A DNA stretch of 63,827 nucleotides from Ginglymostoma cirratum (taxonomy: Eukaryota): the NCBI GenBank assembly GCA_024137785.1, contig JAHRHZ010000029.1, positions 27,803,793 to 27,867,619 on the forward strand. The letters are read 5' to 3'. Both the position numbers and the translations under genes were made by a program. This document shows positions 7,692 to 62,725 of the stretch, one piece after another. Position 1 is the stretch's first letter; every line of letters begins with the position of its first letter. The notes under the pieces were generated by a model, which worked only from the letters and a program-made list of their open reading frames with translations, was not told the origin of the DNA and ran no database searches.

Positions 7692-7905
7692 AACAAAAAT
7701 ACTACAGATGATTGAAATCTCAAACAAACACAGAAAATGCTGGAGAAACTCAGCAGGACTGACAGCATCAGTGGAGAGAGAAAACGAGTTCATAGTTTAA
7801 GTCTAATGTGTCCCAAAGATATTTCAGACTCAAAACGTCAAATCTGTTTCTCTGTTCACAGATGCTTCCGGTCCTGTTAAGTTTCTCCAGCATTATGTGT
7901 GTGTG
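7692..7905. mobile_element. Degenerate fold-back mini-PLE (family B-like)
   Basis: aatgctggagaaactcagcaggactgacagcatcagtggagagag is inverted relative to ctctgttcacagatgcttccggtcctgttaagtttctccagcatt. Confidence 0.7.
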
Positions 7906-8630
7906 TTTTCATATTTTCCTTCATTTATTGTGATTACCAGGATGATTAACTGCAGTATTCAGGCAAACTACGAAGAGCTTGTAATATATTCATAGTATTT
8001 GAAACCAAAGCTTTGTCAATTGCAAAACTCACAAGCATTTTGGAGAGAGGAGCATTGAACCAAAACCTACCTTTACGTGAACTATGGATGGTTACGCAAG
8101 CAAGTTTTGCTAAAACAAAGTACTTTAGTCACAAAGCTGTCTGCACTTGAAACTAAGGGAAAAATGACTTGCGGCATAAACTGGCCAAAAAGCAGTGATG
8201 CATCACAAAATGGCCATGAGGATTGTAAAGATACGAAAGAGATTCTATCAACTCACCAATCTAGGCTCCATCCAATAACATAGGTTGAAGTTGAAAGAAA
8301 AGTTAAGATAGCCTGGATAAAGATGCACTATTAGGGTACAGCTTGCACAGGAAAATGGATAGTGCCAAAGACAATGCCAGCTGGAGCAACAACTTTAGAT
8401 AATATAATCACTAGCTTCTTTGTCTCTCTTACTGGTCTTCATTTACATTTACGTCACAAGTTAAATTTTACTGATGTTAAACTTTGCGACTGGAATACCT
8501 TGTGTTTTTTTTGTACTATTTCATTAAATGTATATTGCAATGAAAATACCAGTTGGAACTTAAATAGTACACACAGCAGAGGAATATTGAAGGGGCCAGA
8601 CGGAGCTGCATTGGTGGTCATCCACATAGA

Positions 8631-9230: not shown

Positions 9231-10489
9231 GATGTGACGAACATAGAGTAAAATAACGTAGGGGTCTTAAAAGTCAAGCATCAAGTCAATATTCTCCAGT
9301 GTACATTTCAATGTTTGGAAAAGAAGCAGAGTTCATTGAGTATGTAAGTTAATGGCTGTTGATATTTTGAGAAAACAACAATGCAATGTTTGTTCACTGT
9401 AACTGGGAATAATTTGCTAAACATAAAAGCACAGGAGAGACAGGCTGTACCTAAACCAAAAAGGAAGAGAGTAATATTGAGACAACAACTGAGCATCATT
9501 TGAATTAATCAGATGGTAGTGAGGTCTGAGAGGAAGCAGTATCCCAGACAGGTCTGAACATGCAATAGAAGGCAGTAGCCATATGAGTATTTTCACAGTA
9601 CTTCTGAGACATAAGGAGGACTTGGAAAATAACAAAAGGTAGGCAGTGAGGACTGTGAGAGGAGGGAAAATACATATTGAGATGAGTATGTATATAAATT
9701 AATGTTTGTAGAATTAGGACATGATTTTGGAGGAAGGATGTTATGTCATAAAAATAACAGAAGTATGTTGTAAAGGCATTAGAAATGTGGTTAACTCCAA
9801 ATGGGAATGCATAGCCTATTTAGGGTGTAGGGTGTTCAAATGACCCACTCTGGATAGTTAATAAGGTATGAATATAAAATAATGTTAGATGTATGCTCTA
9901 CTGCTCAAGAAGGAAAGTGGTTCATGATATAAAGAATTGAAAGAATATGAGAGAACAAAATATATATTTTAATATGCATCTTTGATCAACCTAATATGAA
10001 TTGAGTAAACCCAAGTAATTTGCTGTCAGTACTGTTAAAGATAATGACTGATTGCTTCATGGTGCAGCATGTTGGAGAAGACAATCGTGCTCTTCTTATT
10101 TTCTGCACCGTGTTGAGGTTGTTTTCAAAGTGGAACGGAGGATGATTCTTTTCAACCTGATTGGCTGGATTTTCCCAGTTGAACTACAAGCCCAATGGTC
10201 TCAATTTCAGGTCAGGAACTAAGTGGCAATGGCAAGATGTTACTCCTGATCTTCCCAGAGAAAATGAATTAAGAATCAGGGATGTGTGGAATATTGTTGT
10301 TCAAGTCCTGCTTAGGACTCCTACCACATGTCTTTTCACAGTACATTGACTGCATTAATGTCATTTCCTACTCTAGTCCTGAAATGGAATATCTAATCAA
10401 ATACTCTTCCAATATCCATGTTTTTCTCGCTTTTACATGGTCCATCTCTTTCTTTTTTCATCCCTTGCTCGTTTTTTTCTGCATCTATT

Positions 10490-10690
10490 TCTAGGGGAAG
10501 GCTATCAACCAATATTCACCATCAGGCACTGACTCTCTCAGTTACCTCGACTGCTCTTCCTCACATCTGCTTCCTTTAAGGACATCATTTCATTGTCCCA
10601 GTTCTGCCATCTGTGTTACAAATGTTCTGATGATACAGTCTTAGATGCCAGATTCCTCTTTCCTCAAGCAAGAATACCCCATTAACATGG
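10490..10690 (+). mobile_element. Old degenerate PLE RT fragment (host of the 10691 insertion; resumes after 10946)
   Basis: Degenerate similarity to the STNIH..TDS.SYLD.SSSH...KD.I..SQF motif of the PLE at 36739-37850. Confidence 0.55.
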
Positions 10691-10930
10691 GATAGTAAGA
10701 ACTGCCGATGCTGGAGTCAGAGATAACACCATGTGGAGCTGAGGAACACAACTGGCCAGGCAGCATCAGAGGAGCAGGAAAGCTGACGTTTCAGGTCGGG
10801 ACCCTTCTTCAGAAATGTTATTGTAGTAACAGAGATTTCTGAAGAAGGGTCCCGACCTGAAACGTCAGCTTTCTGCTCCTCTGATGCTGCTTGGCCTGCT
10901 GTGTTCCTCCAGCTCCACACTGTGTTATCT
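10691..10930. mobile_element. Fold-back mini-PLE (two family-A pLTR arms head to head)
   Basis: Arms 10691-10816 (-) and 10835-10930 (+), each with CTGAAGA...GAAACGTC. Flanks ATACCCCATTAACATGG (10674-10690) and ATGCCCCTTAACATGG (10931-10946). Confidence 0.85.
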
Positions 10931-12350
10931 ATGCCCCTTAACATGGCTGGTCCCCTTTCCTGCATTTCTGCTGTCATTTCTTACTGCATCCCTGATAAGG
11001 TTGTCCTTTGGCCCTCACCTTCTAGCCCACCAGCCTCCTCTGCTTCTTCAGCCTCCTCCAACATGACGCCACTGTTTGTTGTATTCATTTAAGCTCATTT
11101 TAATGTCCAGTAGTTCTGAAAGGAGCTATGTAAGTGCAAGCTTTGTTTTTAACGTGACCTATTATTATCTCCTTTTACATCATTGTGAAGCACCTTCGGA
11201 CATTTCTCCACATGACAGGCTTTATTTTCATGCTAATTATTGTTCCTGTTATTGAAGGGAAACATCTGAGAAATTATCATGTATAATATTAAAATCCATG
11301 TGGAAAAGATAAATCCCGAAAATTAGTTTTGGATAAACTGCCTGTTGGACAGATCAAAGTGACTAAAATACTTCTTGATTTAATAGACCTGGCTGTCAAG
11401 ACTTTCTCAAGCTATGCATCAAAGTGGTTTCCTAATCATTCTTAAGCTTTAAATACCAAGACTGACAGTAACAGTTATTTAGTGCAAAGTTCCTCATGAA
11501 ACCATAAGTATTAAACCTTTGCATTTGCTGACATCTAAGATATTCTGCATTATCCCAGGCTTTTCCGATCAGGTACAAAAAAGAAGCTAACACCTGAAGC
11601 TGATGGTTTCATGGGGCAAAGTGCCATACAGTCTTTGTGGAAGCATTCACTACTAATTTCAGTTCTTACCCTGTTAACCAGTGCCTCTACTCCTGAATGT
11701 GATGCATCAATAATGGACATTTCCTACATTATTTTTATTTTATTTGGCAGGGGATGCTGGAGATTGGCGGGGCATCTGCTTCTCTAGCTTCCTACTAAAC
11801 TCTATATAATAACAGGTACACATTCAGTGGATCTAAACACACCCTCTGACAGAGGGTATAATAAGATATGAGCTGGACACAGGATGGTTATTATTACTCC
11901 TCTTTAAAAAGCATGCCCATGACAAATATAAGAGCCCAGTCACTCCCAAGGTATGCAATGAATAATGGATACTTAAAGTGTTATGCTTTATAAAGCACTC
12001 TTCCCTCAATGTGAGAATTAAAACCTAGCATGCTTATCCTCCAATGTGACCTCAACTTTTAAATTATGAGGATCTCAGTTTCAGTTGATCATTTGTATGT
12101 GATGGATTTTTTTCTAGCAGTGATAAGAATAAGCACCTGACCAAGATTACTTTTGTGACAAGAAATCCGTACTTTTCAAATTTCCTTGAATGTGTTCAAT
12201 AGATTCTGAAAAGATATGTCTGTAGGACATATTCTTACTTTTTTTCACATTGTTATACATGTTGCCCTTTCAACCCCTTTTTATGTCTTATTCTTTTGAA
12301 TTTTTTCTCTTCAAATCACGGTTTACTGGAAGCTACACATCTAATACAGG

Positions 12351-13296
12351 GTTAGTAGGAACTGCTGATGCTGGAGTCTGAGTTAACAAGGTGTGGAGCT
12401 GGATGAACACAGCAGGCTAAGCAGCATCAGCGGAGCAGGAAAGCTGACGTTTTGGGTCAGCACCCTTCTTCAGAAATAGGGAAGGTAAAGGGGGCTCTGA
12501 AATAAATAGAGAGAGGGGAGGTGGTGATAGAAGATGGATAGTGGAGCAGATAGGTGGAGAGAAGACGGACAGGTCAAGGAGGTGGGGATGAAGCTAGTGA
12601 GGGTGAGTGTAGGTAGGGAGTTGGGATGGGGGTTGGTCAGTGAGGAGGGAGGAGCAGATAGGTGGGAGAGAAGACAGGTCATGCAGGCGGGGATGAGGGA
12701 GAGGGCTGGTCTTCAGATGAGTTTGGGGCTGGGGAGATTTTGACGCTCGTAAAGTCCACATTGAGACGATTGGGTTGTAGGATTCCAAGGCGGAATATGA
12801 GGTGCTGTCCCTCCAGTTTTCGGGTGGCATCATTGTGACACTAGAGGAGGCCCAGGATGGACATGTCGTCCAGGGAGTGGGAGGTGTTGTCGTTTGTCGT
12901 GAACCGAGCGTGGGTGCTCCACAAAGCGGTCTCCAAGCCTCCGCTTGATCTCCTAGACAAGGCCACATCGGGAACAGCTTCAAAATCTCCCTACCCCCAA
13001 CCTCATCCCAAGACCAGCCCCGACCTCTCCTCCCCGCTTCCTTGATCTATCCGTCTTGTCTCCCACCTATCCACTGCTCCCACCTCACTAACCAACCCCC
13101 ACCCCCAAGTCCTATCTACACTCACCTTTAATAGCTTCATTCCCCCCTCCTTGACCTGTCTGTCTTCTCTCCACCTATCTGCTCCACTATCCACCTTCTA
13201 TCACCGCCTCCCCCTCTCTCTATTTATCTCAGAGCCCCTTTCCCCTCCCCCATTTCTGAAGAAGGGTCCAGACCCAAAACGCCAGCTTTACTGCTC
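12351..13296. mobile_element. PLE 3' fragment with inverted duplication (family A)
   Basis: 12351-12975 (-) matches the 3' end of the 36348 element; 12976-13296 (+) is an inverted copy of the 3'UTR and pLTR. Flanks CACATCTAATACAGG (12336-12350) and CACATATAACACAGG (13297-13311). Confidence 0.85.
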
Positions 13297-13861
13297 CACA
13301 TATAACACAGGTCCTTGTTCTTTGCGCATAGAAAGAATATGTCCATGCACTGAACCTGTTTCAAGTCAACAAAATTGATGACAGCCAATCTCTGTTTCAT
13401 TTCCTCAGGGCAATGCCCTAACCAATCAGAATCAACCTTCCTGGTTTAAAATTTAGAGATTGACCGTTAACTGTAAGTCATCATTAATTGGTGCATTCGC
13501 CATGGAAACACCAAGAGTGCACATGCCAACCAGTCAGCATTCTCCTCTTAGATAGTATAAACTTTTTCCCCTTACTTTGGTGCTTTTTGTGAATTGCCTT
13601 GAGTATGAGATAGAACACTTTGACAAAGTGTGTTTTTTAGGAACACTCAATTTCTGTACTACCATAAATTTATTTAAATCATATCTAACTAAAACTGCCT
13701 TGAAGAGACATGCCAGAATATGAATGCAAATTGATATCCAGCGATTTAATTGCCATAATAAGCATTAAGTTTATCATTATTGGAGTTATGCCATCACTCA
13801 TAAAATAAATGAAGCTTCCAGTTAGTGTCAGTACTGTATCTTGCACACCATGGCCATACAA

Positions 13862-14210: not shown

Positions 14211-14723
14211 AGTATCTGTTTCAACCTCACTGATACCTCCTCTACCCTATGTTGCTAGAAAGTTGCCCTCAACTAATGTGTGTTTTTTGACACCAGTGTC
14301 TTTGGCTACAATGTCAGACAAAATAGAAAGCAGAACATTTCAATGTTTGTAAACACAGAGAAGCAACTCTGGCATTTTTAACAACATAGTAGAGGAAGCT
14401 AATAATCTAACAGCAACTTGTGAGACATGAATCCTCAGTGCTATCAGAACACTCCTTTATATTTTGAGTGTGTTAAGAACATTGAGAAAATGTCACATCT
14501 CCAGTCCATGATGCTTCCATAAGACATTTCCTGTTCTCCATCAAAAACCATGTGTACGGTTAAAACATCACATAGAAATTCCAATTCAACAGCAAGCTGT
14601 GTGGTCCAACCAGTCTACGTCAATGCTAATTCTTCATGCAAGAAGTAGTTCTAATCCCATATCCTATAGTAAATCTTTTCCTCCTTTCTTTAAATTGCCC
14701 CACTTAACATCATTTTCTTTTAA

Positions 14724-15147
14724 GTTAACAAGGTGTGGAGCTGGATGAACACAGCAGGCCAAGCAGCATCATAGGAGCAGGAAAGCTTGACGTTTCGGGC
14801 CTAGACCCTTCATCAGAAATGGGGGAGGGGAAGAGGGTTCTGAAATAAATAGGGAGAGAGGGGGAGGCGGATATAAGGTGGATAGAGGAGAGGATAGGTG
14901 GAGAGGAGGCAGACAAGTCAAAGAGGCGGGGATGTACCCAGTAAAGGTGAGTGTAGGTGAGGGGGTAGGGAGGAGATAGGTCAGTCCAGGGAGGACGGAC
15001 AGGTGAAGGGGGCAGGATGAGGTTAGTAGATAGGAGATGGGGGTGGGGCTTGAGGTAGGAGGAGGGGATAGGTGAGAGGAAGAACAGGTTAGGGAGGCGG
15101 GGACGAGCTGGGCTGGTTTTGGGATGCGGTTGGGGGAGGGGAGATTT
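14724..15147 (-). mobile_element. PLE 3' fragment (family A pLTR plus purine-rich 3'UTR)
   Basis: Near-identical to 36348-36770. Confidence 0.9.
14785..14820 (-). ncRNA. Minimal hammerhead ribozyme motif (family A), intact core
   Basis: Reverse complement: atttCTGATGAagggtctaggcccGAAACGTCaagc. Confidence 0.7.
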
Positions 15148-15825
15148 TGGCCTTCTGGATTCAATACAGAGTTCAACAACTTTAGGATGTGAGCATCCTC
15201 TCTCGTATCCTTGCCACAATCCTGACGTATCAAGCCTTGACACCACATCAGCTGATAACACAAACAACTCGCTGTCAATCACTAATGGTCCCCATCCTTC
15301 ATTTTCCCAGCTGACCTTTACACGTTCCTTTGGCTGCTCAAGTGTTCTCTCTCTGTCTGTCTTCTGTCTCTCTCTGTCTTCTGTCTCTCTCTGTCTTCTG
15401 TCNNNNNNNNNNTCTGTCTTCTGTCTCTCTCTGTNNNNNNNNNNNNNNNNNNNNNNNNNNNNNNNNNNNNNNNNNNNNNNNNNNNNNNNNNNNNNNNNNN
15501 NNNNNNNNNNNNNNNNNNNNNNNNNNNNNNNNNNNNNNNNNNNNNNNNNNNNNNNNNNNNNNNNNNNNNNNNNNNNNNNNNNNNNNNGTATTATTCACTA
15601 CACCACCACCATTCCCCACACCCGCCCACCAACACCACCACCAACCACCCATCTTTAATGTACATAGCAACCTTTTCCTAGCTGCAATCAGTTCTGAAAC
15701 AAGGGTCACTGGATCTGAAACATTAACTCTGCTTTCTCTCCACAGATACTTTCAGACCTACTGAGTTTTTCGAGCAATTTCTGTTTTTGTTTCTGATTTC
15801 TAACATCCGCAGTTCTTTGGTTTTA
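15148..15825 (+). mobile_element. PLE 3' fragment ending in a family-B pLTR; contains TC-rich microsatellite and assembly gaps
   Basis: gttctgaaacaagggtcactggatctgaaacattaactctg...cagttctttgg at 15690-15822; N runs at 15403-15412 and 15435-15587. Confidence 0.6.
15345..15434. repeat. TC-rich tandem repeat (TCTCTCTCTGTCTTCTG-like unit)
   Basis: Seen directly; runs into N gaps. Confidence 0.9.
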
Positions 15826-18269
15826 ATATTTCTTTCTACTTGTACATCCTCCACTGGCCAGCATCATAATGAAAATGTACTGTACCCTCTGCCTTGCCTG
15901 TTCAGTACTCTAACCGTTGTCTTATACCAAGGTTTTGTATCAATTTAGATTTACTTCTTAATTTGTATAGTCTATGCCTGTAATATTCCATGAACATTTT
16001 TATCCATTTGAGATCCTTTAAAGTCTCCACAACACTCCCCCTTTTATTTAAATCTGTCTATATTTCCCTAGTTATTCAATTTGCCACAATGCTGGTGTCA
16101 TCATAGTTCTAATGAAGCCCATCCTATCAGAACAGCTTGCTTCTACCCCTCCATTGGTGTCAGTGCCACATGAACTGAAACCCATTCTTCCCACACTAAT
16201 GTTTGAGCCACTGACTCCCTGGCTTTATTTCCTTCTGTCAGTTTTCCCATGGTTCAGGTAGTCAGGTACTGCTCAACACAGAGTTGGATGCCGCAATACA
16301 AACTTTTGTCGTATGAGACTGAAAGTGCCCACTTTGGTTTAAATGGCAACATATAACTAATTCAGAAGGTATCTGAGCTTTACAAAACTAGTTAAGAGGT
16401 GAGATGACAGGATGGCTCCCCTGTGATGCATTCTACAGCTGAATAGCCTGCCAGGATTCACCCATGTGGTTCTCACATGAAGGCTGTACTTGGGCTGAGT
16501 CAGATGACAGAGGCTGTTGAGGAAGGTGGGATTGGAAGAATAACAAGGATAGAAACTGAGAAAACACTTTGTTTCTAGAAATAAATTGTTAACCAAAATA
16601 ACTGGTTAGTGAATTGGTCCTCTTGCTCTGCAGTGTTAAATGTGAAGGGTATTTTTATGAAGAAGCACATGGCTGCTTGCCTTGTGATTCATTGATTCAA
16701 TAGTAGATCACTTACATGATTGATGACAAAGGGCTTCAGATGATGGTGAAGTAACCGAGCAACCAAAAGGTTACTTGGTATCAAAGGATTTTAAAGGTCT
16801 TGATTTTGTTTAAAAAGAGTATTTGCAACGTGCTGTACCTTTACTCTGGGGAGCCACTCCAGCTGGTTTTGTACTAAACGCCTGCTTATATTTCACTCTC
16901 TTCACAAATGCTCCAGGAGATTGTTTTGACGTTTACAGCATTATAGATCAAGAAAGCCCAAAACAATCCTGTTCGTCGACTTACAATGAACTAACGTAAT
17001 TTCTCAAAATCCAACTTTTGAAGTACTTTCTGCAGTGTTGCTATCTGTTATTGGATTTTTTTTTGTCTATCTTCCCAAAGTAAACATTCTGTATTGATCG
17101 TCACTGTCATGGATCACTTCCCTGATGTTGTCCAGGATGTTTGATGATGAGTTGTTGCATGCACATTGTCATAAGGGAATTAAGTTAATGCTCGACATCT
17201 GGTACGACTCCTCTTCAGGAAACAAAAAATATATAGAAAAGACATTACATTCAGGACATAGGGCCTGGTGCGAGAGAATGGGATTAGTGTAGATAGGATG
17301 GTGCAGGTACAATGGGCCAAAGGGCCTCTTCTGTGCTATATGATGCCTTGACATTTATAACTGGAATATTCAGAACAGAATACTGTTATTGTAGGGGAAA
17401 TCCTCTTTCTTCCTCCTTTCTCTCTGACAATTTCATTCCCTTCTGTGAGCTAATGTGGTAACCACCTGAAGGAGAACAGGTAGTTGAAAATAGATGTGGA
17501 GGACTGGAGTGGGGGTCTGTTGCTGTGGAAAGGAAGGGGAGCAGCATCCTGCCTCCACCATTGTCATCCTCATCCAACCTGTTACACGTTTCCTATTTTT
17601 CTAATTTTCTAATCAACCTGTTCAGAGATGTTGTTACACACGTCTAGAGCAGGTAGGACTTGAAGCCAGGCTTCTGTAGTCGAGGGGCAGAGACATCACC
17701 ACTGCACCACAAGAGGGCCCCCATGCATCTACTTTTTTTAATTTTTCCACCACAAGGAAAACACCCATATGGCCAATTAAACATGAACAAGCAAAGTCTG
17801 TTCAGGGCAATACTGTCATCTGTAACACTTTCCAGACAAACCTACAAATGGACCCACCTGCTCCCAGCAGCTGGCTAATAAGATAATTCAAGATCCATCT
17901 CTCACTTCCATTGTATGATGCCACCTGCAATTTTCAGATACATATTGATTCACAAATTGTAACCACAGCACCTTTTCTGAGCTCCAGTATTGACGTCTGA
18001 GGGGCTATGCTCCACTTTCACAGCACATCCACCACCCCCAAGGGCTAGCTCTGACCCAGCCAGCTGATTAAGTACAGGAGCTGAAAGATTTCCCACTTTT
18101 GCAGCATCCAGAATCTAAAGCATGGTCCCCTCAGCTCACGTATGACATTCAAATTGGCTCCTGCTCTGAAGGGCTGTTTCAATGCTAGCTCCATACAACA
18201 TGCTGCACCAATTTAATATTGCCAGAATGTTGTAAAGGATGCAATAACAGATTCTTAGAAATCGCCAGT

Positions 18270-19559: not shown

Positions 19560-19680
19560 CATTTCACCTGATGAAGGAGTAGTGCTGTGAAATCTTGTGA
19601 TTTCAAATAAACCTGTTGGACTACAACCTGGTGTCGTGTGACTTCTGACTTTGTCCACCCCAGTCCAACACCAGCACGCC
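19560..19680 (+). mobile_element. PLE pLTR (family C) with decayed hammerhead motif
   Basis: TCAC CTGATGA aggagtagtgctgt GAAA tctt GTGA (stem I TCAC/GTGA), then aataaacctgttggactacaacctggtgtcgtg. A related copy is on the minus strand at about 60345-60430. Confidence 0.6.
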
Positions 19681-19919
19681 CATACACAGTTATATGCATA
19701 GATTATAAATGAGGACACAATCTACCATGTTATGTTTCGAATTTGTGCATCTCCTGCTTAATTCTGATGAGTTTTGAGTTAGGATGTGGGGAGGTGGTGA
19801 CGAAGCTGAGGGAGAATGTGCATAGGCCAGCATTTTTTGTATAGTGCATGGGAGCACAAAAATTCATTTTAAAACAGTTTTGTAGCTGTTTTATTGAAGT
19901 GTCAAGCAGCTGGAAGTCA

Positions 19920-26695: not shown

Positions 26696-26920
26696 GGGCA
26701 AAATACTGCAGATGCTGGAGATCTAATATAAAAACAGAAAGCACTGGATAGACTTAGCAGGTCTGGCAGTATCTGCAGAGAAAGAGTTAACATTTCAAGT
26801 CCAATGACGATGGAGTTCCAAAGAAATGCCATTAGATTCCAAGGTAACTCTGTTTATCTCTCAACAGATGATGGCAGGCCTGCCGAGTCTCTCCAGCGCT
26901 TTCTGTTTTTATCCCAGATT
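26696..26920. mobile_element. Fold-back mini-PLE (family B-like)
   Basis: aatactgcagatgctggagatc...cagcaggtctggcagtatctg...agttaacatttc, then inverted aactctgtttatctctcaacagatgatggcaggcctgccgagtctctccagc. Weak flank repeat ATTTCTA(T/C)AA. Confidence 0.75.
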
Positions 26921-27249
26921 TCTACAATTCTTCGAATGAAGCCACTGTTCTCGTCCACATCAGAAATAGCTAAACAGGCCGCATATCAATGATTCAATTC
27001 CACTATCTTATTTGAAACCTGAAAATGTCTTTTTTAATTTGGCACATTGCTTCAGACAGAATCAAATGAGCTGTGCTCCTGCAGAGAACCTTAATTAAAG
27101 GACCCTATTTAGAATGTAGACATTCTTGTGCAAAGTGCCAGTGATAGATTTGTTAGTAAGAAAAATAAGCAACTATATTTTGGCACAGTGAGCAAGACAT
27201 TTTCCACATTTTAATTGCCTCATTTGCTATTGACTATGAAACCCACACA

Positions 27250-30598: not shown

Positions 30599-31945
30599 TC
30601 ATAGAGTCATAGAGATGTACAGCATGGAAACAGACCCTTCAGTCCAACTGGTCCATGCTAACCAGATATCATAGATAAATCTGGTCTCATTTGCCAGCAT
30701 TTGGCCATAACAGTCTAAACCCTTCCTATTCATATACCCATCCAGATACCTTTTACATGTTGTAATTGTTTTAGCCTCCGCCACTTCCTCTGGCAGCTCA
30801 TTCCATATACACACCATCCTCTGCATGAAAATGTTGCCCCTTTGGTCCCTTTCAAACCTTTTCCCTCTCACCTTAAACCAATGCCCTCTAGTTTTGGACT
30901 CCCCCCACCCTGGGGAAAAGACCTTGTCTATTTATCCTATCCATGCCCCTCCTGATTTTATAAACCTCTATAAGGCCATCCCTCAGCCTCCGATGCTTCA
31001 GGGAAAATAGTCCCAGCCTATTCAGCCTCTGCCTATAGCTCAAACCCTCCAACCCTGACAACATTCTTGTAAATCTTTTCTGAGCCCTTTCAAGTTTCAC
31101 AATATTCTTCACGCAGTATGCCAAAAGTGGCGTAACAAATGTCCTTTACAGCCGCAACATGACCTTCCAACTCAATGCATTGACCAATAAGGGCAAGCAT
31201 ACCAAAAGCCTTCTTCACTATCCTATCTAACTGCAACTCCACTTTCAAGGAACTATGAACCTGCACTCCAAGGTTTCTTTGTTCAGCAACAGTCCCCAGA
31301 ACCTTACCATTAAGTATATAATTCGTGCAGTGATTTGCCTTTCCAAAATGCAGCATTTATCTAAATTAAACTCCAACTGCCACTCCTCGGCCTATTGGCC
31401 CATCTGATCAAGATCTCGTTGTACTCTAAGGTAACCTTCTTTGCTGTCCACTATGCTTCCAATTTTGGTGTCATCTGCAAACTTACTAACCATACCAGCT
31501 ATGTGCACATACAAAGTATTTTATATACATGAAAAGCAGTGGATCTAGCACCAATCCTTGTGACACACCACTGGTCACTGGCCTCCACCACTAACCTCTG
31601 CCTTCTACCTTCGTACCAGTTCTGTATCCAAATGGCTAGTTCTCCCTGTATTCCATGTGGTCTAAAAACCGAAAGACCAGTGGATGCTGTAAATCAGGAA
31701 CAAAAACAGAAGTTGCTGGAAAAGCTCAGCAGGTCTGGTAGCATCTGTGAAGAAAAAAAAATCAGAGTTAATATTTCAGATCCAGTGACCCTTCCTCAGA
31801 ACTCATTTCTGAGTAAGGGTCACTGGACCCAAAGCGTTAACTCTTATTTTTAATTCACAGATGCTGCCAGCCCTGCTGAGCTTTTCCAGCAACTTTTGTT
31901 TTTGTTCCATGTGATCTAACCTTGCTAACCAGTCTACCACCATAA
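30599..31945 (-). mobile_element. CR1-clade LINE 3' portion (interrupted by mini-PLE at 31666)
   Basis: FADDTKIG, LHFGKAN, LERAQKRFTRMLSGLEGLSYRQRLNRLGLFSL; catagagtcatag tail. Confidence 0.92.
31666..31904. mobile_element. Fold-back mini-PLE (family B) inserted in a CR1 LINE, 15-bp TSD
   Basis: Arms 31666-31803 (-) and about 31807-31904 (+). TSD TTCCATGTG(G/A)TCTAA at 31651-31665 and 31905-31919; CR1 sequence continues across the insertion. Confidence 0.9.
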
Positions 31946-34372: not shown

Positions 34373-34772
34373 NNNNNNNNNNNNNNNNNNNNNNNNNNNN
34401 NNNNNNNNNNNNNNNNNNNNNNNNNNNNNNNNNNNNNNNNNNNNNNNNNNNNNNNNNNNNNNNNNNNNNNNNNNNNNNNNNNNNNNNNNNNNNNNNNNNN
34501 NNNNNNNNNNNNNNNNNNNNNNNNNNNNNNNNNNNNNNNNNNNNNNNNNNNNNNNNNNNNNNNNNNNNNNNNNNNNNNNNNNNNNNNNNNNNNNNNNNNN
34601 NNNNNNNNNNNNNNNNNNNNNNNNNNNNNNNNNNNNNNNNNNNNNNNNNNNNNNNNNNNNNNNNNNNNNNNNNNNNNNNNNNNNNNNNNNNNNNNNNNNN
34701 NNNNNNNNNNNNNNNNNNNNNNNNNNNNNNNNNNNNNNNNNNNNNNNNNNNNNNNNNNNNNNNNNNNNNNNN

Positions 34773-35008: not shown

Positions 35009-35520
35009 GGTGGTAAAATCTCCTCGTGGGCCAACTCATAGGCCTGGCCACAGTGGCCATGAACAGACCCAGGTTGTGGGCCGTAGAGGGGGTCTTCGTT
35101 AGTGACTATCTGTTCCTCTGCCATGGCTATGTTTATGTCTGGGTGCCCTTGGAGAGGAGGATGCGGTGTGCAACAACACTCTCATTGCGTTTATTTAGAG
35201 ATGGATGGGCGCTGTGGATGTGTGGAGTGCAATGTTTTGTCCCTCCAACTCCATTTTAATTTATTCCCATCCGTCTCTCTCAAACCTACCTGTAATGATC
35301 GGAACCGGGTTGGCTAGGTTGATCTCATTGAGTATGAGTTCCCTGATTGAGGCTTTTAATGTGGCCAATCAGGGAGCTCTGGCTGACAGATAGAAACAGG
35401 AGTCTCAAGGATCCTCCACACTCTAGGGGCTGGCTCTGAGCTGGCTGGTCAGAGCCCATGAACTGAGCACATGTAAATAAAGGGTGACTTGGTGATGGGA
35501 AACTGGCCTTCTGATTTCTG

Positions 35521-35556
35521 ATTTCTGATGAAGGGTCTAGGCCCGAAACGTCAAGT
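35521..35556 (+). ncRNA. Minimal hammerhead ribozyme motif in PLE pLTR (family A), intact core
   Basis: attt CTGATGA a GGGT ctag GCCC GAAAC GTC aag: CUGAUGA core, stem II, GAAA, palindromic ACGT stem III, GUC cleavage triplet. Confidence 0.7.
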
Positions 35557-35606: not shown

Positions 35607-35815
35607 GCCTCTTACACACAGAAATCAGTCTGTTTGCTTTAATGTCTGCTTCTTAGCTGATAGTGTGTTTAACTGTTTTAAATAATCTAAGTAATTATTA
35701 GACATGATCATTAATATGACAGTGGAGGGAGTGTTTGCTGAAGTTGGATGAGGCTCTGACCAAGCAGACTGCTTTGTCCTGGCTGGTGTCGAAACCTGAA
35801 ACCATTCCATTGTAT

Positions 35816-35940
35816 CAGAGATAAAAGGTACTGCAGATGCTGGAGAATCGAGATAACAAGCATGGGGCTGGATGAACACAGCAGGTCAAGCAGCATCATA
35901 GGAGCAGGAAAACTTGACGTTTTGGGCCTAAACCCTTCAT
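35816..35940 (-). mobile_element. Family-A pLTR solo insertion
   Basis: Complete tail end; CATTGTAT repeated at 35808-35815 and 35938-35945. Confidence 0.85.
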
Positions 35941-36404
35941 TGTATTAACTTCTGTAACTTTTCTGCCATTAGCATTTGCTGGAACCTCATCTGATTCAAA
36001 TTTTAATGCCACTACATTGTGAATGCCAGACTCTGGTAGAACTGTGAAAAGCTACTAACTCTTGTGTGCGCACAAGGCTCAGAAATCCCTTCAAGAGGCT
36101 TTGTGATTAAAGCATTAAGATATCAGTAAACCTTTCTAGATCATCTCACAATTTACAGCAATGTACAGCATCCATGAGGATTTCTGCAGCCCTCTAGCCT
36201 TCTGTTCTGATCCTCTGCACCATTATTTCATTCTCCAGGATAAAACAGGCCAGCAAGTGCTTGACAATGCTGAGAGACTTTGACCACACACATTTGAATG
36301 GGAAACCAAAGAAACATAGGCTGTGAGATCATTACTGAAAGGAAAGAGATAACAAGGTGTATAACGAGGAACAAGCAGGCCAAGCAGCATCATAGGAGCA
36401 GGAA

Positions 36405-36440
36405 GGCTGACGTTTCGGGCCTAGACCCTTCTTCAGAAAT
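36405..36440 (-). ncRNA. Minimal hammerhead ribozyme motif in the 3' pLTR of the coding PLE
   Basis: Reverse complement: atttCTGAAGAagggtctaggcccGAAACGTCagcc; same orientation as the PLE ORF. Confidence 0.65.
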
Positions 36441-36738
36441 GGGGGAGGGGAAGGGGGTTCTGAAATAAATAGGGAGAGAGGGGGAGGCGGATAGAGGATG
36501 GATAGAGGAGAGGATAGGTGGAGAGGAGACAGACAAGTCAAAGAGGCGGGGACGGAGCCAGTAAAGGTGAGTGTAGGTGGGGGGGTAGGGAGGAGATAGG
36601 TCAGTCCAGGGAGGACGGACAGGTCAAGAGGGCGGGATGAGGTTAGAAGATAGGAGATGGGGGTGCGGCTTGAGGTGGGAGGAGGGTATAGGTGGGAAGA
36701 AGGACAGGTTAGGGAGGCGGAGACGAGCTGGGCTGGTT

Positions 36739-37850
36739 TTAGGATGCGGTAGGGGGAGGGGAGATTTTGAAGCTTGTGAAGTCCACATTGATACCATTGG
36801 GCTGCAGGGTTCCCAAGCGGAATATGAGTTGCTGTTCCTGCAACCTTCGGGTAGCATCGTTGTGGCACTGCAGGAGGCCCAGGATGGACATGTCGTCTGT
36901 GGAATGGGAGGGGGAGTTGAAATGGTTTGCGACCGGGAGGTGCAGTTGTTTAGTGCAAGCCGAGCTTAGGTGTTCCATAAAGCGAGCCCCAAGCCTCCGC
37001 TTGGTTTCCCCGATGTAGAGGAGGCCACAACGGGAACAGCGGATGCAGTATACCACATTAGCAGATGTGCAGGTGAACATCTGCTTGATGTGGAAAGTCT
37101 TCTTGGGGCCTGGGATGGGGGTGAGGGAGGAGGTGTAGGGGCAGGTGTAGCACTTCCTGCGGTTGCAGGGAAAAGTGCCGGGAGAGGTGGGGCTGGAGGG
37201 GAGTGTGGAGCGGACAAGGGAGTCATGCAAAGAGTGGTCGCTCCGGAAAGCAGATAAGGGTGGGGAGGGAAAAATGTCTTTGGTGGTGGGGTCGGATTGC
37301 AGATGGCAGAAGTGTCGGAAGATGATGCGTTGGATCCGGAGGTTGGTGGGGTGGTATGTGAGGATGAGGGGGATTCTGTTTTGGTTGTTATTACGGGGAC
37401 GGGGTGTGAGGGATGAGTTGCGGGAAATGCGGGAGACATGGTCGAGGGCGTTCTCGACCACTGAAGGGGGGAAGTTGCAGTCCTTGAAAAATGAGGACAT
37501 CTGAGATATACGGGAGTGGAATGTCTCATCCTGGGAGCAGATGCGGCGGAGGCGAAAGAATTGGGAATAGGGGATGGCATTTTTGCAGGAAGGTGGGTGG
37601 GAGGAGGTGTATTCTAGATAGCTGTGGGAGTCGGTGGGCTTGAAATGGATATCAGTTTCTAGGTGGTTACCGGAGATGGAGACAGAGAGGTCCAGGAAGG
37701 AGAGAGCGGTATTAGAGATGGTTCAGGTGAACGTAAGGTTGGGGTGGAAGCTGTTGGTGAATTAGATGAACTGTTCGAGCTCCTCAGAGCACGAGGCGCC
37801 GCCGATACAGTCGTCAATGTAACGGAGGAAGAGGTGGGGTTTAAGGCCAG
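36739..37850 (-). pseudogene. PLE RT C-terminus, Cys linker and GIY-YIG endonuclease (disrupted)
   Basis: LFLRYIDDC (YIDD at 37821-37810), FLDLSV, KPTDSHSYL, SHP..CKNAIPYSQFFRLRRICS, linker CNRRKCYTC, GIY-YIG VVYCIRCSRCGLLYIGETKRRL...HFNSPSH...EQQLIFRLGTLQPNGIN. The RT part has in-frame stops; 36739-37500 is open. Confidence 0.92.
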
Positions 37851-38040
37851 CGTACGTACGAAACGTCAGCCTTCCTGCTCCTCTGATGCTGCTTGGCCTG
37901 CTGTGTTCATCCAACTCTACACCATGTTATCTCAGATTCTCCAGCATCTGCAGTTCCTACTATCACTGAAAGGAAAGACTTTATTTTGCTATGTTCTGTT
38001 TCAGTTGTGTGGTGAAGGATTTATCTTGGCATTTGACTTC

Positions 38041-40795: not shown

Positions 40796-41352
40796 AAAAG
40801 GAATTGGCATATGCACAGGCATTCTGTGTTAAAGCTGCAGTGGACGCCAACAAAGAATGCCTCAGCAAATCTTGTTGTGTTGCTAAAGAGGTGTGCATTC
40901 TGTTGCAGTATTTACTTAAGCAATAAATATCCACATGGGACTAAACAACAAACGGTTGGCCAAATGCTTTTCTTGAATTTTGTCCCTTTGATTTATGTTG
41001 ATTTATTGATGGAAATTTGCACACTTCCGTGTTCAGTTCTTAATGGTAGAGGGGATTGAATTCATCCAAATACCTTATCTTTGGCAAGCTGCAAAAAACC
41101 TCACCATAACAAGAGTGTCTTCCTCCATTACTGATCCCAGGGTATGAGCGGAAAACTACCTGCAAGCAACAATGGGCACTTGTTGAGTGACTTTGAGTAA
41201 TGCTGTGTTCTGGATCATGACCATTTTCATTTGAATGTAATTATTAAACATAGAACCCATGTTCTAATCAGCTGTTCCTCTGGATGATATACAATCCATC
41301 TAAGCAGTACTTTGATGGATGGATGCTTGTTTAACCAATTGCCCTGAATTAA

Positions 41353-41701
41353 AAAAAAAACCAAAGAACTGCAGATGCTGGAAATCAGAAACAAAAAACA
41401 GAAATTGCTGTAAAAACTCAGCAGGCCTGGCAGCATCTGTGGAGAGAAAGCAGAATTAACATTTTGGGTCCCCACACAGCAGGCCTTGTTATCACACGGA
41501 CTGCTACCACAAACTGTCAGCTGCTAATGGAGTCTATGAATGGATACTATTCATTCACCAGGGCTGACCTTTACTCATTCCTTTGTCCGCCTGACTGTTT
41601 TTCTCCCCTGTGCTCTATCGCTACTGTTTTACTTGTTTACTCTTCCCCCCATGCCCAACTCCTTACCCCACCTCACCTTCAGCATTTATACCAACCTGTT
41701 T
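41353..41701. mobile_element. Family-B pLTR (-) plus inverted PLE 3'UTR fragment, 14-bp TSD
   Basis: TTGCCCTGAATTAA at 41339-41352 and 41702-41715. Another pLTR fragment at about 41788-41882 has a CTGACGA...GAAA motif on the minus strand. Confidence 0.8.
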
Positions 41702-47410: not shown

Positions 47411-47864
47411 TTAAATGAAAACCCATGAGCCCAATTTGCCTGCTGGACATACTGTTTTTGAGTTCACTACTTGCAAGCAGCTCAGACACACAGCATTGCA
47501 ATCTCCATCTTGTATACAACACCTCACCTGGAATAGAGATTGAAATCCAAATTAGCACAATACCATCCAAATGAACCAACCAAGGAGTCCCGAATTGCTG
47601 TGACTACATACTCATCTGTATACATTTGTATGGAATTATCTAGTTGAGGCTTTAGTATCTTTCCATTTCATGATTGTATAGGAATTTTTCCTGTTCTTGC
47701 CACCTGCTATTAAATGTCTGTTGGAAGGATTTACAAGTTCATACTGAAGCTGATTTACAAGTTACAAAAATAAAAAAAAACTGCAAATGCTGGAAATCTG
47801 AAAGAAAGTAAGAAATTGCTAAAGAACCTTGCCAATTCTGGCAGTATCTGTGGAGAGAAATCAG

Positions 47865-47902
47865 AGTTAACGTTTCAGGTCCAGTGACCCTTCTTCAGAA
47901 CT
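47865..47902 (-). ncRNA. Minimal hammerhead ribozyme motif (family B), intact
   Basis: Reverse complement: AGTT CTGAAGA a GGGTC actg GACCT GAAAC GTT AACT. Stem I AGTT/AACT, stem II, palindromic AACGTT, GUU triplet. Confidence 0.7.
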
Positions 47903-47921
47903 GATGGCAGGTATGAAAAAG

Positions 47922-48115
47922 AGATAATAGGAACTGCATATGCTGGAGAATCCGAGATAACAAGGTGTAGAGCTGGATGAACACAGCAGGCCAAGCAGCA
48001 TCATAGGAGCAGGAAAGCCTAAGGGTCTAGGCCCGAAACGTCAAGCTTTCCTACTCCTATGATGCTGCTTGGCCTGTTGTGTTCATCCAGCTCAACACCT
48101 TGTTATCTCTTATAT
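47922..48115. mobile_element. Nested fold-back family-A mini-PLE, 14-bp TSD
   Basis: Inner TSD CAGGTATGAAAAAG at 47908-47921 and 48116-48129; arms about 47922-48018 (-) and 48021-48109 (+). Confidence 0.9.
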
Positions 48116-48594
48116 CAGGTATGAAAAAGTTGGTTTTTATGCAGAAGTTAGGATGGGAGGAGAGGGAGCAAGTGATTTTCAGAACAGCCTTCAGAACTGA
48201 AGAAGGGTCATTGGACCCAAAATGTTGACTCTGCTTTCCCTTCACAGATGCTGCCAGATCTCCTAAGGTTCTCCAGCAATTTCTATTTTTGTTTCTGATT
48301 TACAAGTTGATGCTCAAATTGTTTGATTCAGTTATGAAGGCCCCTTCCATAGCATTCAAGACCTGGAATAGACTCAAATCCTAGCTTCTGGATCAGAGGT
48401 AGGGATGCTACCACTGGGCAACTGCTGCTGTGGATATATAATATTATACAGTACAGTGTGAAGCTAGTGACTGCTCAGCCACTGTAAATACATGACTTAC
48501 CATGTTGTTTCTTTGCTCCAACATTATGTAGTGTCTCAGATAGTCCCTGAAGTACTTTAAGAGGTCTGACAGAGCCCAGAAAGGTTCCTTAAGA

Positions 48595-52852: not shown

Positions 52853-55659
52853 ATTATTTTTTAAGATAACCATAATAGCTTTCTGAGTTTCATACTGCTC
52901 TGCAGTGAAAATGTTTTAAAAATACTGTGTCCTCTTAACCAGATATTTTGTTGCTGACAATTTCAAGAAATCCTCTGCTTGGTCCATGGAGCAGCGATAT
53001 TTTTGAAGTCTTCAACTGGTGTTGTATCAGTGAAACAACAGTAATAATTACACAGAAAATTTGTGCTTCGGAGACATTGTCATTGTATCTTACGCTATTG
53101 AAACTCTGTTAAAATAAAAGGGTAGAACCTTTACTTATGCTTTGCCCACTTGCCTGGTGAGATATTGAGTGTATGGAAACAGGCTGATCTGGAGTTTATG
53201 ATTTTTCTGTGGCAGGTGGATACCATTATTGTTCTCAAAAGCTATTATTGTGCAGTGGAATTTAACCATGGCAATCTCTCTACCAGTCAGAGTCCATCTG
53301 CCAACCCGTAGCACTCTCCTCTCATGTCACATAGACATTGATCTTCCCCTTGAATTCGTATTCTTGTGAAAAGTTCTGTTGATTATAAATGGAAAGCTTC
53401 GACAAAATGTGCCTTTTCCAGTCACACTCAACTTCTGTACCAAATAGCTATAATCTTAAAATGTACAAAAGATCATTTTCTTAATCATTCATATTTTACA
53501 TTGCTTAGCTAGCTGCTATAACATGAAGGCAAGATATTTTAGGGTGTCTGGTTAATCTGGAATTCTGACACTTCAGAATTCTAAAAAAGGAAGAAAATTG
53601 GCAAGAAAAGTGCATATGTCTGCCTGTCTTTCTTTTCCTACCCTCATTCTCAGATTGTTCAATTATTTCGTAATTGATTAGTCTTTAACCCTATGCTACT
53701 TCATTATACAGTTGGCATCAATTTGCTGCAGTCCATCTGCTGTTTTGGATCAGTCACTGGATTGACCTATATTGCAGCAACAGACTCACTTTTAGACAAA
53801 TTGAACACTAAGCTTTGATTAATTAAGTTTCCTCACAGAAGTAAGCAAGTCAAATTATGAAACAGAATGAAGGGAGAATTTGAACTCGTGAATCAGCAGA
53901 CTGAATGACAGCAAGATAATGGTGTAGGAAGCACAGTGCAGTTGATGTGAAGTGTTGTGCTGATGCTGTTTGAGGAGTTTCATCTAAATTGAGAGTAGTT
54001 GCTGAAAGTATAATTTGTGGAAACTCAGGATATTGCAGCAGATTAATATATGGTAGATAGAGCCCTTAGGGAGTGAGAGTGCAGAAGTTTACCACATAAG
54101 ATTATTTTTCTGAAAATTAATAGGCAAGATATACTAAATAGGGCTGTTGAAAGGAGTAGAGAGTGTGCATCATCTTTTTGAACATTAATTGTGTTTACTA
54201 TTTAGACATAACATTGCCCAATTCCACCCCAGCTTAAGCTCATCTGAAACCTTCAATCATGCCTCTGTTGAGACTTGATTTCTGCAAGTCTGCCAGGTGA
54301 AGCTGTGGGAGTAGCTAGTCTGCCAGGCAAGACTGGTGGCGAAAGCAAAAATCATTCAGGCAAGGCTGGGAATTGAGCAGAAAATGGGATAAGCCAATAA
54401 GGGGAACCTAGAACTAGGGAGCATTTTCTAAAAAATAAACTCAGACTTTTCAGAAGTTAAATTAGGAAATACATGGGGTAACTAAAGGGAAGACAGTGGT
54501 GTAATGATAATAGAACAAAGAACAGTACGGCACAAGCACAGGCCCTTCAGCCCTCCAAGCCTGTGCCAACAATTTTCCCTTCCGTACAAAAACTGTCTTC
54601 ACTTACAGGATCCGCATCCTTTTATTTCCTTCCTATTCATGTGTTCATCCAGGTACTTCTTGAATGCTGCTACTGTGTCTGCTTGCACCACCTCCTCTGG
54701 CAGTGGGTTCAAGCACAATGTTACATAATGTCACTGGACTAGTAATTCAGTGGCCCAGGCTCTAGGGACCTGAGTTCAAATCTCATCAAAGTGGCAGCAG
54801 CATGTTTAGAGTCCTTGCTTTTGCGTGTGTCCTTTTTTTAAAAAAAAGCTGCTGTTGCAAAACCAAAAAATTAAGGTTTTCGTTGTGTGTTGTGGCTTTA
54901 AGTTCAATGCTGTGTTGATAATTGAGAATATTGATGAATTCTTCCATGCAAATCCGAATATCCCATACATCAACACAAATATAGAAAATAATGTCACTAC
55001 GTGACTGTATCACCTAATAAAGAAATCAGTGAGAATGTCCCCAATAAAACAATAGGTAGCCTCATGAAAATTTTCTCTTCTGGTATAATATATGATGATG
55101 ATTTCTTTTAAAACAAAATGTGAAAGACTATGTGGAGAGTAATGGGATTTTGTTGGCATTGAGACAATTTTACCAGTGAACAAAATAAACAGTTGTGCAC
55201 ACGGTTTGCCATTTAAACGGTCAGGGGTTCATTAGACGAAATACCCATAGCATGAAAAATAGCTTTAGAATCAGTTTTGACAGTTTAGCAGGGTACTTGG
55301 CTAAAGCTGAATATTTAAAGCAGTTGCTCCTGAGAAAGGGAGAAGACAGTTTAGAATTGTTAAGAGCAAGATTGTTCCAGTGTAAAAGTTTAGTAAACGT
55401 TCCAGACCAGAAATGTTTGGTTAAAATCCTAAAAGGGTTATTTGAAGGTAAGAAAATTTACGCTCAGTTGTATAAATGCTTCAACAAGTGAGTGTTAGAT
55501 TCTCAAGACTGAGAGTTGAAACTTAAGCCATATACGGGTGATAAAGAAGGGAATTCTGTCTGTCTTGAGTTTATAAAGGGGTTCTTTTGGGTTTAATGGG
55601 ATTATATTTTTATAATTTGTTTCAAAATCTTTAGAGGTGTGTTTTAGATATAAATAAAG

Positions 55660-55782
55660 TAGTTCTGAAGGGTCTCCTTCAGAAGTGAAGTCTTCAGAAC
55701 TACACCCGAAACGTTGACTCTGCTTTTTCTCCACAGATGCTGCCAAACCTGCTGAGTTTCTACAGTAATTTCTGTTTTTACT
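55660..55782 (+). mobile_element. Rearranged family-B pLTR
   Basis: cccgaaacgttgactctgctttttctccacagatgctgccaaacctgctgagtttc. Confidence 0.7.
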
Positions 55783-60330: not shown

Positions 60331-61559
60331 TTATCAGCCTGTGGAGGTGCTGATGTTGGTCTGAGGTGGACAAGGTCAGATATCACGACACCAGGTTATA
60401 GCCCAACAGGTTTATTTGAAAACAGAAGTTTCTTTAGGTGTCGATTAGATAAGGATGTATTAAACAAACCCAAGATGCTGTTAAATCTTTAACAGGTTTC
60501 AATTGATTAATATGTATATGTAAATACCCAAACTTCTTTCAAGGCACTATCCTGAGAGAACTAAAGGTTTTTTCTTTACACTGATGAGGTAACATTTTAG
60601 GTCAAACAATGCACGTTACGTGAGAGACCTTGTTTAGAATCAGTTTGTGTTTTGCATTGGAGATAGACTGGCTTTATTTCTAAAGTAGGAATTTATAAAA
60701 TGCCACTGACTAACTGTCTATAAGTTGCACTTTTTGAACAAAACAGAATGCATCTCCAAATACAAGTTCACCCCACAAATTTACATGTTTGTACCTATGT
60801 GTGTGAGAGCAAGTGTACAAAGGGACAGCAAGCGAGCATGCTCGAGGGAGAAAGTTTGGCATTTGTTGCATGTCCATTATCAGAGGAGTCCTGATTAGTA
60901 TTGAACATGTGGAGCCACTGAAAACTCCCATCTCTAACCTTACAAAGGGAAGGTCATTGATGAGAGAGCTGAAGGTGATTGAGTGTAGGACACTACCAAG
61001 GTCGAGGGGGCTTATGGTGTCACACCCACCTCAGGCCCAGCTAGTGACACCTACGTCGTGTATGAATAAAACTATGCAGCAGTCACTCCTACGGATTCTG
61101 GCTTGAACAGATGCATCTGACAGATAGGTCACTGAAAACCTAGCCCAGTGAATGCTCAGACCAACTACAGCATCCAAACAGAAGTCATCAAATACTACAC
61201 TAAGATATACAGCCTGCACAGCTACATGCTGACATTCAGAAAATTTACAGTATAGTTGATATTAAGGTGTTTGCAATTTTTGTTTTAAAGAGCTTTAATT
61301 ACCAATTCTGTTCAAAGAAAAAGTATCAGTGTGAACTTAATATGTAAGAATATTGGCCACATCACATATTCAGTGCCCCTTTAAGTGGGGTGACTGTATA
61401 AGATTGTGTACGAATGAAGCATCCTATAGAAAGATTATGGGAATTTTCAACCTGTTTTATTCAATCAACTTATACATATTTGAAATTACCTAAGAGGAGT
61501 CAATTCCTTAAGCGATATATAAACTTAATATTGGTGCTCTAGTAAGTCAGTCACACACA

Positions 61560-62516: not shown

Positions 62517-62725
62517 TTACAAGTCTGTATCAAACCAGGCCAGCTGATTACTGTCACCTGGGGGAAGCCCATCCATCAAGTCCTGGGCATGTCCAAGGTC
62601 TGGCAGCCCATCAACTGGGTACTCTGCACCAGGGTGGTGACCACCCATATCATGCTCCATCATCGGATCAATACCCATGGTGTCTTGTCCATATCCGCCT
62701 GGATGGTAAGAGCGAAAGCTAGGAT
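62517..62725 (-). CDS. CTNNB1: Beta-catenin last coding exon (209 nt, phase 1 start)
   Basis: Translates to (D)[68 protein letters not shown], the beta-catenin C-terminus with the DTDL PDZ-binding motif. The acceptor TAG is at 62728-62726 on the minus strand. Confidence 0.98.

Follow-up and report, generated by a model that had tools for sequence, protein, structure and literature searches.

What are the non-coding hairpins scattered among the repeats of the Ginglymostoma cirratum genome, mobile elements in their own right or by-products of the integration of larger ones? The question is raised by a hairpin at positions 31666-31904 of a 63,827-nt stretch of contig JAHRHZ010000029.1 (henceforth the window). 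An earlier note on this DNA had described it and several others as mini-Penelope elements, each composed of two head-to-head terminal repeats (pLTRs) of a PLE with their hammerheads, and had offered two readings: a self-propagating MITE- or retrozyme-like class, or truncation products of a fold-back integration mechanism.

The segment 31666-31904 is an imperfect palindrome of two inverted pLTR arms of one repeat family (family A), and its DNA fold reaches -84.2 kcal/mol (z -16.4), a value equalled by 0 of 200 shuffles. The two copies of its target-site duplication (TSD) are identical at 14 of 15 bp (p 0.0006; all TSDs were scored against 5000 pairs of random positions, and since boundaries were chosen after viewing the sequence, these p values are optimistic). 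Upon in-script excision of the insert and one TSD copy, an open frame ran through the junction and was followed by an RT-like FADD motif. The split LINE is presumably CR1-like; its 35-aa piece at the site had no match in Pfam. The TSD and the restored frame indicate that the insert entered an older LINE as one event, and the claim that the hairpin was inserted as a unit is thus borne out. The inner end of the tailed arm is the A four bases 5' of hammerhead C3, and its intact core comprises CUGANGA, a 5-bp stem II, GAAA and a 2-bp palindromic helix III. The untemplated base at the centre is a G in the sense of the tailed arm, the second arm begins at 31805 (with one mismatch) or 31807, and the outer end of that arm shares a 4-nt microhomology with the TSD start.

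The same plan recurs throughout the window, which contains nine two-armed PLE insertions of two related repeat families, A and B (Table 1), each consisting of one tailed and one tailless arm whose 5' ends face each other. Inverted arms are present at all six places named earlier (7692, 10691, 26696, 31666, 47764, and 47922), and the tail of ~30-35 nt, described before as lying on one side only, does so in all nine. The insertions at 12347-13297, 36344-37966, and 41352-41701 come in addition to the minis named before. With the geometry unchanged, the arms grade in length from ~90 nt up to 1.5 kb, and since the longer insertions (arms of up to 630, 1500, and 230 nt) share the plan, the minis are the short end of a series.

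Table 1. Two-armed PLE insertions in the window and components of the palindrome at 31666-31904 (p values: TSD scores)
Feature	Position	Strand	Remarks
Old family-A mini, two arms 74% alike	7692..7916		TSD weak, 8 bp (p 0.03)
Family-B mini, both hammerhead cores intact	10691..10930		TSD ~16 bp, degenerate (p 0.002)
Family-B two-armed insertion, arms ~630 + ~320 nt	12347..13297		TSD 15 bp (13/15; p 0.001)
Old family-A mini	26696..26922		TSD weak, 9/10 bp (p 0.05)
LINE fragment hosting the insertion	31330..31945	-	Frame open across empty site
TSD, left copy, 15 bp	31651..31665	+	Direct-repeat comparison
Family-A pLTR arm with tail	31666..31803	-	Tail ~31666-31696
Intact minimal hammerhead core	31770..31799	-	Strict motif scan
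Centre junction	31804..31806		One base without template in family sequence, then second arm
Tailless family-A arm, hammerhead core decayed	31807..31904	+	Arm alignment
TSD, right copy, 15 bp	31905..31919	+	Direct-repeat comparison
Family-B insertion, 1.5-kb tailless arm	36344..37966	-	Exact 14-bp TSD (p 0.0004)
Family-A insertion, arms non-overlapping	41352..41701		Exact 14-bp TSD (14/14; p 0.0004)
Outer family-A two-armed element	47764..48294		Exact 14-bp TSD (14/14; p 0.0004)
Family-B mini nested in 47764..48294	47922..48115		Exact 14-bp TSD (14/14; p 0.0004)

Strong TSDs (p ≤0.002) surround seven of the nine insertions. The length of 14-16 bp proposed for the named ones stands for 31666, 10691, 47764, and 47922, and fails for the two weak cases, 7692 and 26696. 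Individual junctions vary: the centre carries a ~17-nt quasi-palindromic filler at 10691, a 3-nt microhomology at 12347, and a palindromic filler at 36344, and the tailless end of 47764 shows a 7-nt microhomology. In the 36344 insertion, a tailed arm of 110 nt on the plus strand opposes a tailless arm that encodes an RT thumb, a CX4CXXC linker and GIY-YIG and is cut at the YIDD motif. In that at 41352 a short tailed arm (-) is followed by a 230-nt stretch of element body (+) whose end lies upstream of the hammerhead; this second arm aligns to the family-A body with a score of 92 (null maximum 61). The tailed arm at 47922 stops ≤2 nt from the predicted ribozyme cleavage site. This nested mini sits just upstream of the hammerhead of its family-A host element, and the anole PLE enzyme reportedly cuts close to the junction between its own ORF and pLTR.

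The PLE, pLTR and hammerhead identity of the arms holds, as does the finding that two families share one architecture. The family-B repeat is contiguous with an ORF remnant (36742-37722) encoding an RT thumb, the CX4CXXC linker and a GIY-YIG domain, the last detected by Pfam at E 1.5e-4 and 22.4 bits, just below the 22.6 cut-off. This remnant has 72 longer relatives (576-1097 aa) at E≤1e-20, most with an RT domain (PF00078), and among the named relatives the highest identity, 65-68%, is to Chiloscyllium punctatum. Family B therefore displays the terminal repeat joined to an ORF with RT and C-terminal GIY-YIG that defines EN+ PLEs, along with a pLTR minimal hammerhead (by motif, with cleavage predicted) and the combination of a one-end tail (9/9), an inverted truncated copy and a TSD (strong in 7/9) seen across the insertions. 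The CX2-5CxxC linker between RT and EN, a mark of the Neptune clade and also a Nematis feature, is present in translation. As the available portion of PMC8557442 assigns a CX4CXXC-type linker before GIY-YIG to Neptune and Nematis and not to Penelope/Poseidon, family B probably belongs with Neptune or Nematis. Family A is tied to a PLE ORF less firmly, through the likeness of its pLTR and an ORF remnant close by, at 19.9-20.4 kb (-); this remnant and another at 10279-10566 (+) are decayed PLE ORFs. The 36.3-38.0 kb element had been put forward as the supplier of the mobilising protein; most of its RT core is absent, and because it is cut just upstream of YIDD and has in-frame stops there, it is not the source.

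A strict scan for minimal hammerheads returned 8 matches in the window and 0 in 30 Markov controls. The description of the minis as two hammerhead arms is right for 10691, the only place with an intact core on both strands. It is half right for 31666, where the left arm alone is intact, and does not apply to 7692, 26696, and 47922, whose tailed arms end inside or after the ribozyme and lack its 5' half, CUGANGA box included. An Rfam scan of the window found no hammerhead and gave 9 weak sub-threshold matches (miRNA, snoRNA, lncRNA), five of them to miRNA families and located on the palindromes. Of six single arms folded as RNA, one (12349, z -2.36) beat its shuffles, and a conserved tail stem was not supported.

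A master palindrome that copies itself predicts junctions shared between copies and separate lineages of left and right arms. Neither was seen: all nine centre junctions differ, with none common to two of the four family-A or of the two family-B minis, and arms pair by locus rather than by side. Comparison of overlapping arms, available at four loci in each family, gave a within-locus identity of 0.79 for family A (between loci, 0.70 same-side and 0.70 cross-side) and 0.91 for family B (0.87 and 0.87), and the true pairing of arms ranks first of 24 in each family and first of 576 combined; gene conversion or age differences could also be the source of the within-locus similarity. A self-propagating class is thus not supported, within the power of a window that excludes up to three equal masters per family, that is, a few dominant ones; with 10 masters, all-different junctions would have a probability of 0.45. 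The shared internal structure and junction expected of a MITE- or SINE-like family were likewise not found, with the same bearing on few masters only. MITEs are short, non-coding, hairpin-forming elements with a TSD. In place of their symmetric TIRs and short fixed TSD, the insertions here have a one-sided tail, a variable second end and a variable TSD of 14-16 bp, and they differ further in having no common internal sequence and an origin by RT. Non-LTR retrozymes contain at least two hammerheads in direct tandem on one strand, and here the arms are inverted; since the hammerheads lie on opposite strands and face apart, a retrozyme cycle is unlikely.

It is improbable, then, that a few palindromic masters are transcribed and reinserted whole by the PLE protein in the manner of a SINE or MITE. 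The similar size of the minis (190-240 bp) would fit this route, as would their retention of the tail region, where the anole enzyme starts (PMC11167929), and the ability of pLTRs to act in trans stated in the available part of PMC3846280, and 5' truncation of such an RNA would also yield variable tailless ends with microhomology. Against the route speak the private junctions, same-side identity that equals cross-side identity (although gene conversion could blur side lineages) and the RNA itself, which when read through a mini is predicted to form one long hairpin and hence a poor template. Less credible still is that the arms were inserted independently, or that the palindromes result from later recombination or repair involving adjacent copies: the window has many solo arms, PLEs do nest (47922 within 47764) and the arm at 14723 adjoins family-A body sequence with no significant TSD (p 0.096), but a single TSD encloses the pair in 7/9 (p≤0.002), exactly one tail is present per pair in 9/9 and the LINE frame is restored at 31666. 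We conclude that the palindromes are best read as dead, one-off products of PLE integration. The alternative held out earlier, truncation products formed at integration, is supported by the unique junctions and the pairing of arms by locus; a new mobile-element class is not supported on present evidence.

How might integration yield a palindrome? Counted from hammerhead C3, the tailless ends are spread over about -20 to +105, in contrast to the tailed ends, which are nearly fixed, to within a few nt. At the tailless end, 2-7 nt are shared with the start of the insertion's own TSD: at least 2 nt in 6/9 and at least 4 nt in 4/9 (scored by eye, small n), with 0-1 nt in the other 3/9. In 5/9 it is the tailless arm that extends further in the 5' direction, by an extra 1.4 kb at 36344 and without any overlap between the arms at 41352. 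We regard it as probable, with clear reservations, that both target ends prime reverse transcription and that the two cDNAs are end-joined in a twin-priming-like reaction, the source PLE residing elsewhere in the genome. On this view, an autonomous PLE with an endonuclease (for family B, of Neptune or Nematis type) would create each palindrome in a single event at the site where it now stands, and the product would be dead on arrival. The GIY-YIG nuclease would make a staggered cut leaving 14-16-nt 3' overhangs, the later TSD. One overhang would prime at the fixed end of the RNA tail and the other, with the help of microhomology, at an internal position that varies and in most cases lies 20-40 nt further upstream. 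The cDNAs would then grow toward each other and be joined through short microhomology or filler, and the minis would be the common short outcome because cDNA synthesis halts in or just 5' of the hammerhead, where inner ends cluster (see below).

Priming from both target ends accounts for all nine insertions, a sample that comes from one window and includes two weak TSDs. It agrees with the behaviour of the purified anole PLE protein, predicted to be dimeric, which cleaves both strands and extends each of them, using two internal start sites that flank the tail (PMC11167929, an in vitro study of 2024 in which the later PLE integration steps are unvalidated). L1 twin priming gives non-overlapping arms, as at 41352, and the part of PMC11702581 available reports twin-primed L1 insertions with TSDs of 12-18 bp, microhomology of ≥2 bp in 71% and duplications of 1-10 bp. 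The arm overlap here, ~60-100 nt in most two-armed insertions, far exceeds the latter, so double priming must assume two RNAs, two pLTRs of a tandem RNA, or strand displacement.

The main competitor, which we consider rather unlikely, is a fold-back of the cDNA, in which a single priming at the tail is followed by the nascent strand snapping back at or near the hammerhead and copying itself to the other target end; a variant, self-priming on antisense RNA, was proposed by Arkhipova et al. 2013, to judge from the accessible text of PMC3846280, which interprets junction palindromes in this way. Palindromic or templated centre fillers at 10691, 36344, 47764, and 55704 speak for it, as do private substitutions common to both arms of a locus. 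Its geometry fits 10691, 12347, 31666, and 47764, and these four of the nine are explained equally well by fold-back and by double priming. A simple fold-back cannot, however, give a tailless arm with sequence that the tailed arm lacks, and is contradicted in the remaining 5/9; the fold-back integration suggested earlier therefore survives for four insertions and fails, in its simple form, for five. Were the fold-back to begin with the tailless arm instead, the tail would be unaccounted for in all nine. A later deletion at the palindrome centre could mimic the five asymmetric cases, but this rescue needs a one-sided deletion every time.

The inner ends of the arms bear on where cDNA synthesis stops under double priming. 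In a set of 25 arms (breakpoints by eye, three positions approximate), 17 inner ends lie within -14..+30 relative to C3, nine lie within -5..0 and none from +31 to the detection limit, a clustering with p<1e-4 in a constant-hazard simulation, the hotspot test being post hoc. Left out of it are 34264, interrupted by an N gap, 41789, whose decay is too advanced, and both arms assigned to a third family; a search of the window for shorter tail-bearing fragments found none. The arms are not randomly truncated; they end at a hotspot in or just before the hammerhead. The stop falls inside the ribozyme in 6 of 11 tailed arms vs 1 of 14 other arms (Fisher p 0.02, post hoc). The sharpest peak is the A at -4, also the first base of helix I, which in families A and B fits the initiator consensus YYANWYY (chance 0.012 per position). 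An extra G, where the family has C, precedes this A in 4 of the 5 arms that start exactly at -4 (p 0.018, post hoc, one possibly due to slippage). In L1 insertions an untemplated G marks capped RNA 5' ends, as stated in the available text of PMC4859970 and PMC11702581. Hotspot and extra G together suggest run-off at a capped RNA 5' end, and run-off is also the simplest account of the stop four bases before C3, one that we hold tentatively, at somewhat less than even confidence. At the 5' end of the solo arm near 35505-35527 a 7-nt unit is present in two to three copies, resembling slippage at a template end, and at 55655-55781 an arm is preceded by templated insertions, several short repeats of the initial ~12 nt of the hammerhead that occur in both orientations; these short repeats of the first arm bases suggest a template end. 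In D. virilis, where the end of an intron adjoins the ribozyme, the start site is ~120 nt upstream of that end, so a start at the hammerhead would not be universal. A splice acceptor behind the hotspot was rejected, as an AG at -4/-3 exists in family A and is absent in family B and cannot explain both.

These stops could fit into a larger scheme, which we find doubtful as a whole: reverse transcription would start internally, at the tail of the 5' pLTR, and run off the capped RNA 5' end at -4, so that one target end or both would carry a 'strong-stop' cDNA of constant length (~130 nt); its transfer to a 3' pLTR would build the direct pLTR of full copies, and failure on both ends would give a mini palindrome. 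If so, 31666 would consist of two run-off cDNAs with a single cap-derived base at their joint, and shark genomes would hold a very large fossil record of a missing PLE integration intermediate. A pLTR plus tail serving as the ORF N-terminus had no match in five named relatives, at least two of which seem to start downstream of the true start, so the step with the 5' pLTR as template is not supported by that comparison. [quoted passage not shown]

The feature is genuine and lies within the known architecture of PLE insertions; what merits pursuit is the hotspot together with the pattern of junctions. An inverted 5'-truncated copy with a 30-40-bp tail at one end and a TSD is the published PLE plan in the available text of PMC3846280 and PMC8557442. 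The accessible parts of these two and of PMC2377424 describe for EN+ PLEs, as found here, head-to-head inverted pLTRs with the tail at one end and a TSD round the unit, junction palindromes and strong 5' truncation. In contrast to what these parts describe, both arms here can be too short for any ORF, inner ends cluster at the hammerhead and TSDs are 14-16 bp, compared with 8-10 bp in Adineta PLEs. Dual minimal hammerheads on opposite strands, 100-700 bp apart, are reported for Schistosoma mansoni in the available part of PMC4209133, which ties dispersed motifs to truncated PLEs; they match the spacing class and strand arrangement seen here, and our analysis covers TSDs, tails and junctions, which that part does not treat. 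L1 twin priming or 5' inversion, as far as described in the accessible text of PMC11702581 and PMC4859970, shares a discrete TSD, one fixed priming end, an end-joined centre, the extra G at RNA 5' ends and, possibly, microhomology at the second junction. It differs in that the present system has another enzyme, no poly(A), an internal start at the tail and, as a rule, an arm overlap of 60-100 nt, which makes the product palindromic. Non-LTR retrozymes are also non-coding, pLTR-derived and equipped with a type I hammerhead; in them, two or more ribozymes sit on the same strand within repeats in direct tandem (bioRxiv 10.64898/2026.07.22.740005, available portion), whereas the arms here are inverted and each strand has a single ribozyme. 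We dropped a connection to Eulor/UCON repeats, as the accessible part of PMC5753468 gives only UCON13 as Penelope and has no passage on palindromes. Our search of the main texts of non-subscription papers found no description of ORF-less double-pLTR palindromes as a family, of PLE twin priming, of a hotspot at the hammerhead or of the junction pattern of PLE palindromes.

These junctions bear on how PLEs build direct and inverted repeats. If the palindromes are double-primed, they reveal priming sites, the nick stagger (14-16 nt) and stop sites, and the shark genome probably holds very many of them, material for telling twin priming, fold-back and antisense self-priming apart. Annotation can mistake such copies for MITEs or microRNA hairpins, and if transcribed they could give dsRNA.

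Arms without a recognisable partner number at least nine (14723, 15673, 20596, 27968, 34264, 35521, 35814, 41789, and 55704). The solo tailed arm at 35799-35945 (35814) has its own TSD (p 0.002), so single-arm insertions also occur; it is the only solo arm tested that has one, none being found for 27968, 55704, 20596, 35521, 41789, and 14723. The joining of 34264 and 35521 into one element was rejected, with no TSD (p 0.78). At 14723-15826 a family-B tailless arm stands head to head with a family-A tailed arm, both breaking near the ORF end, a candidate two-family chimera (TSD p 0.096, arms of unequal age). A third repeat family with a hammerhead-like start occurs as solo, non-palindromic arms at 19560-19690 (+) and 60342-60431 (-). 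Assembly gaps adjoin microsatellites at 15403-15587 and 34373-34772, one of which the 34264 arm enters. The palindromes lie downstream of an open frame at 62517-62837 (-), which we take to resemble the last exon of beta-catenin.
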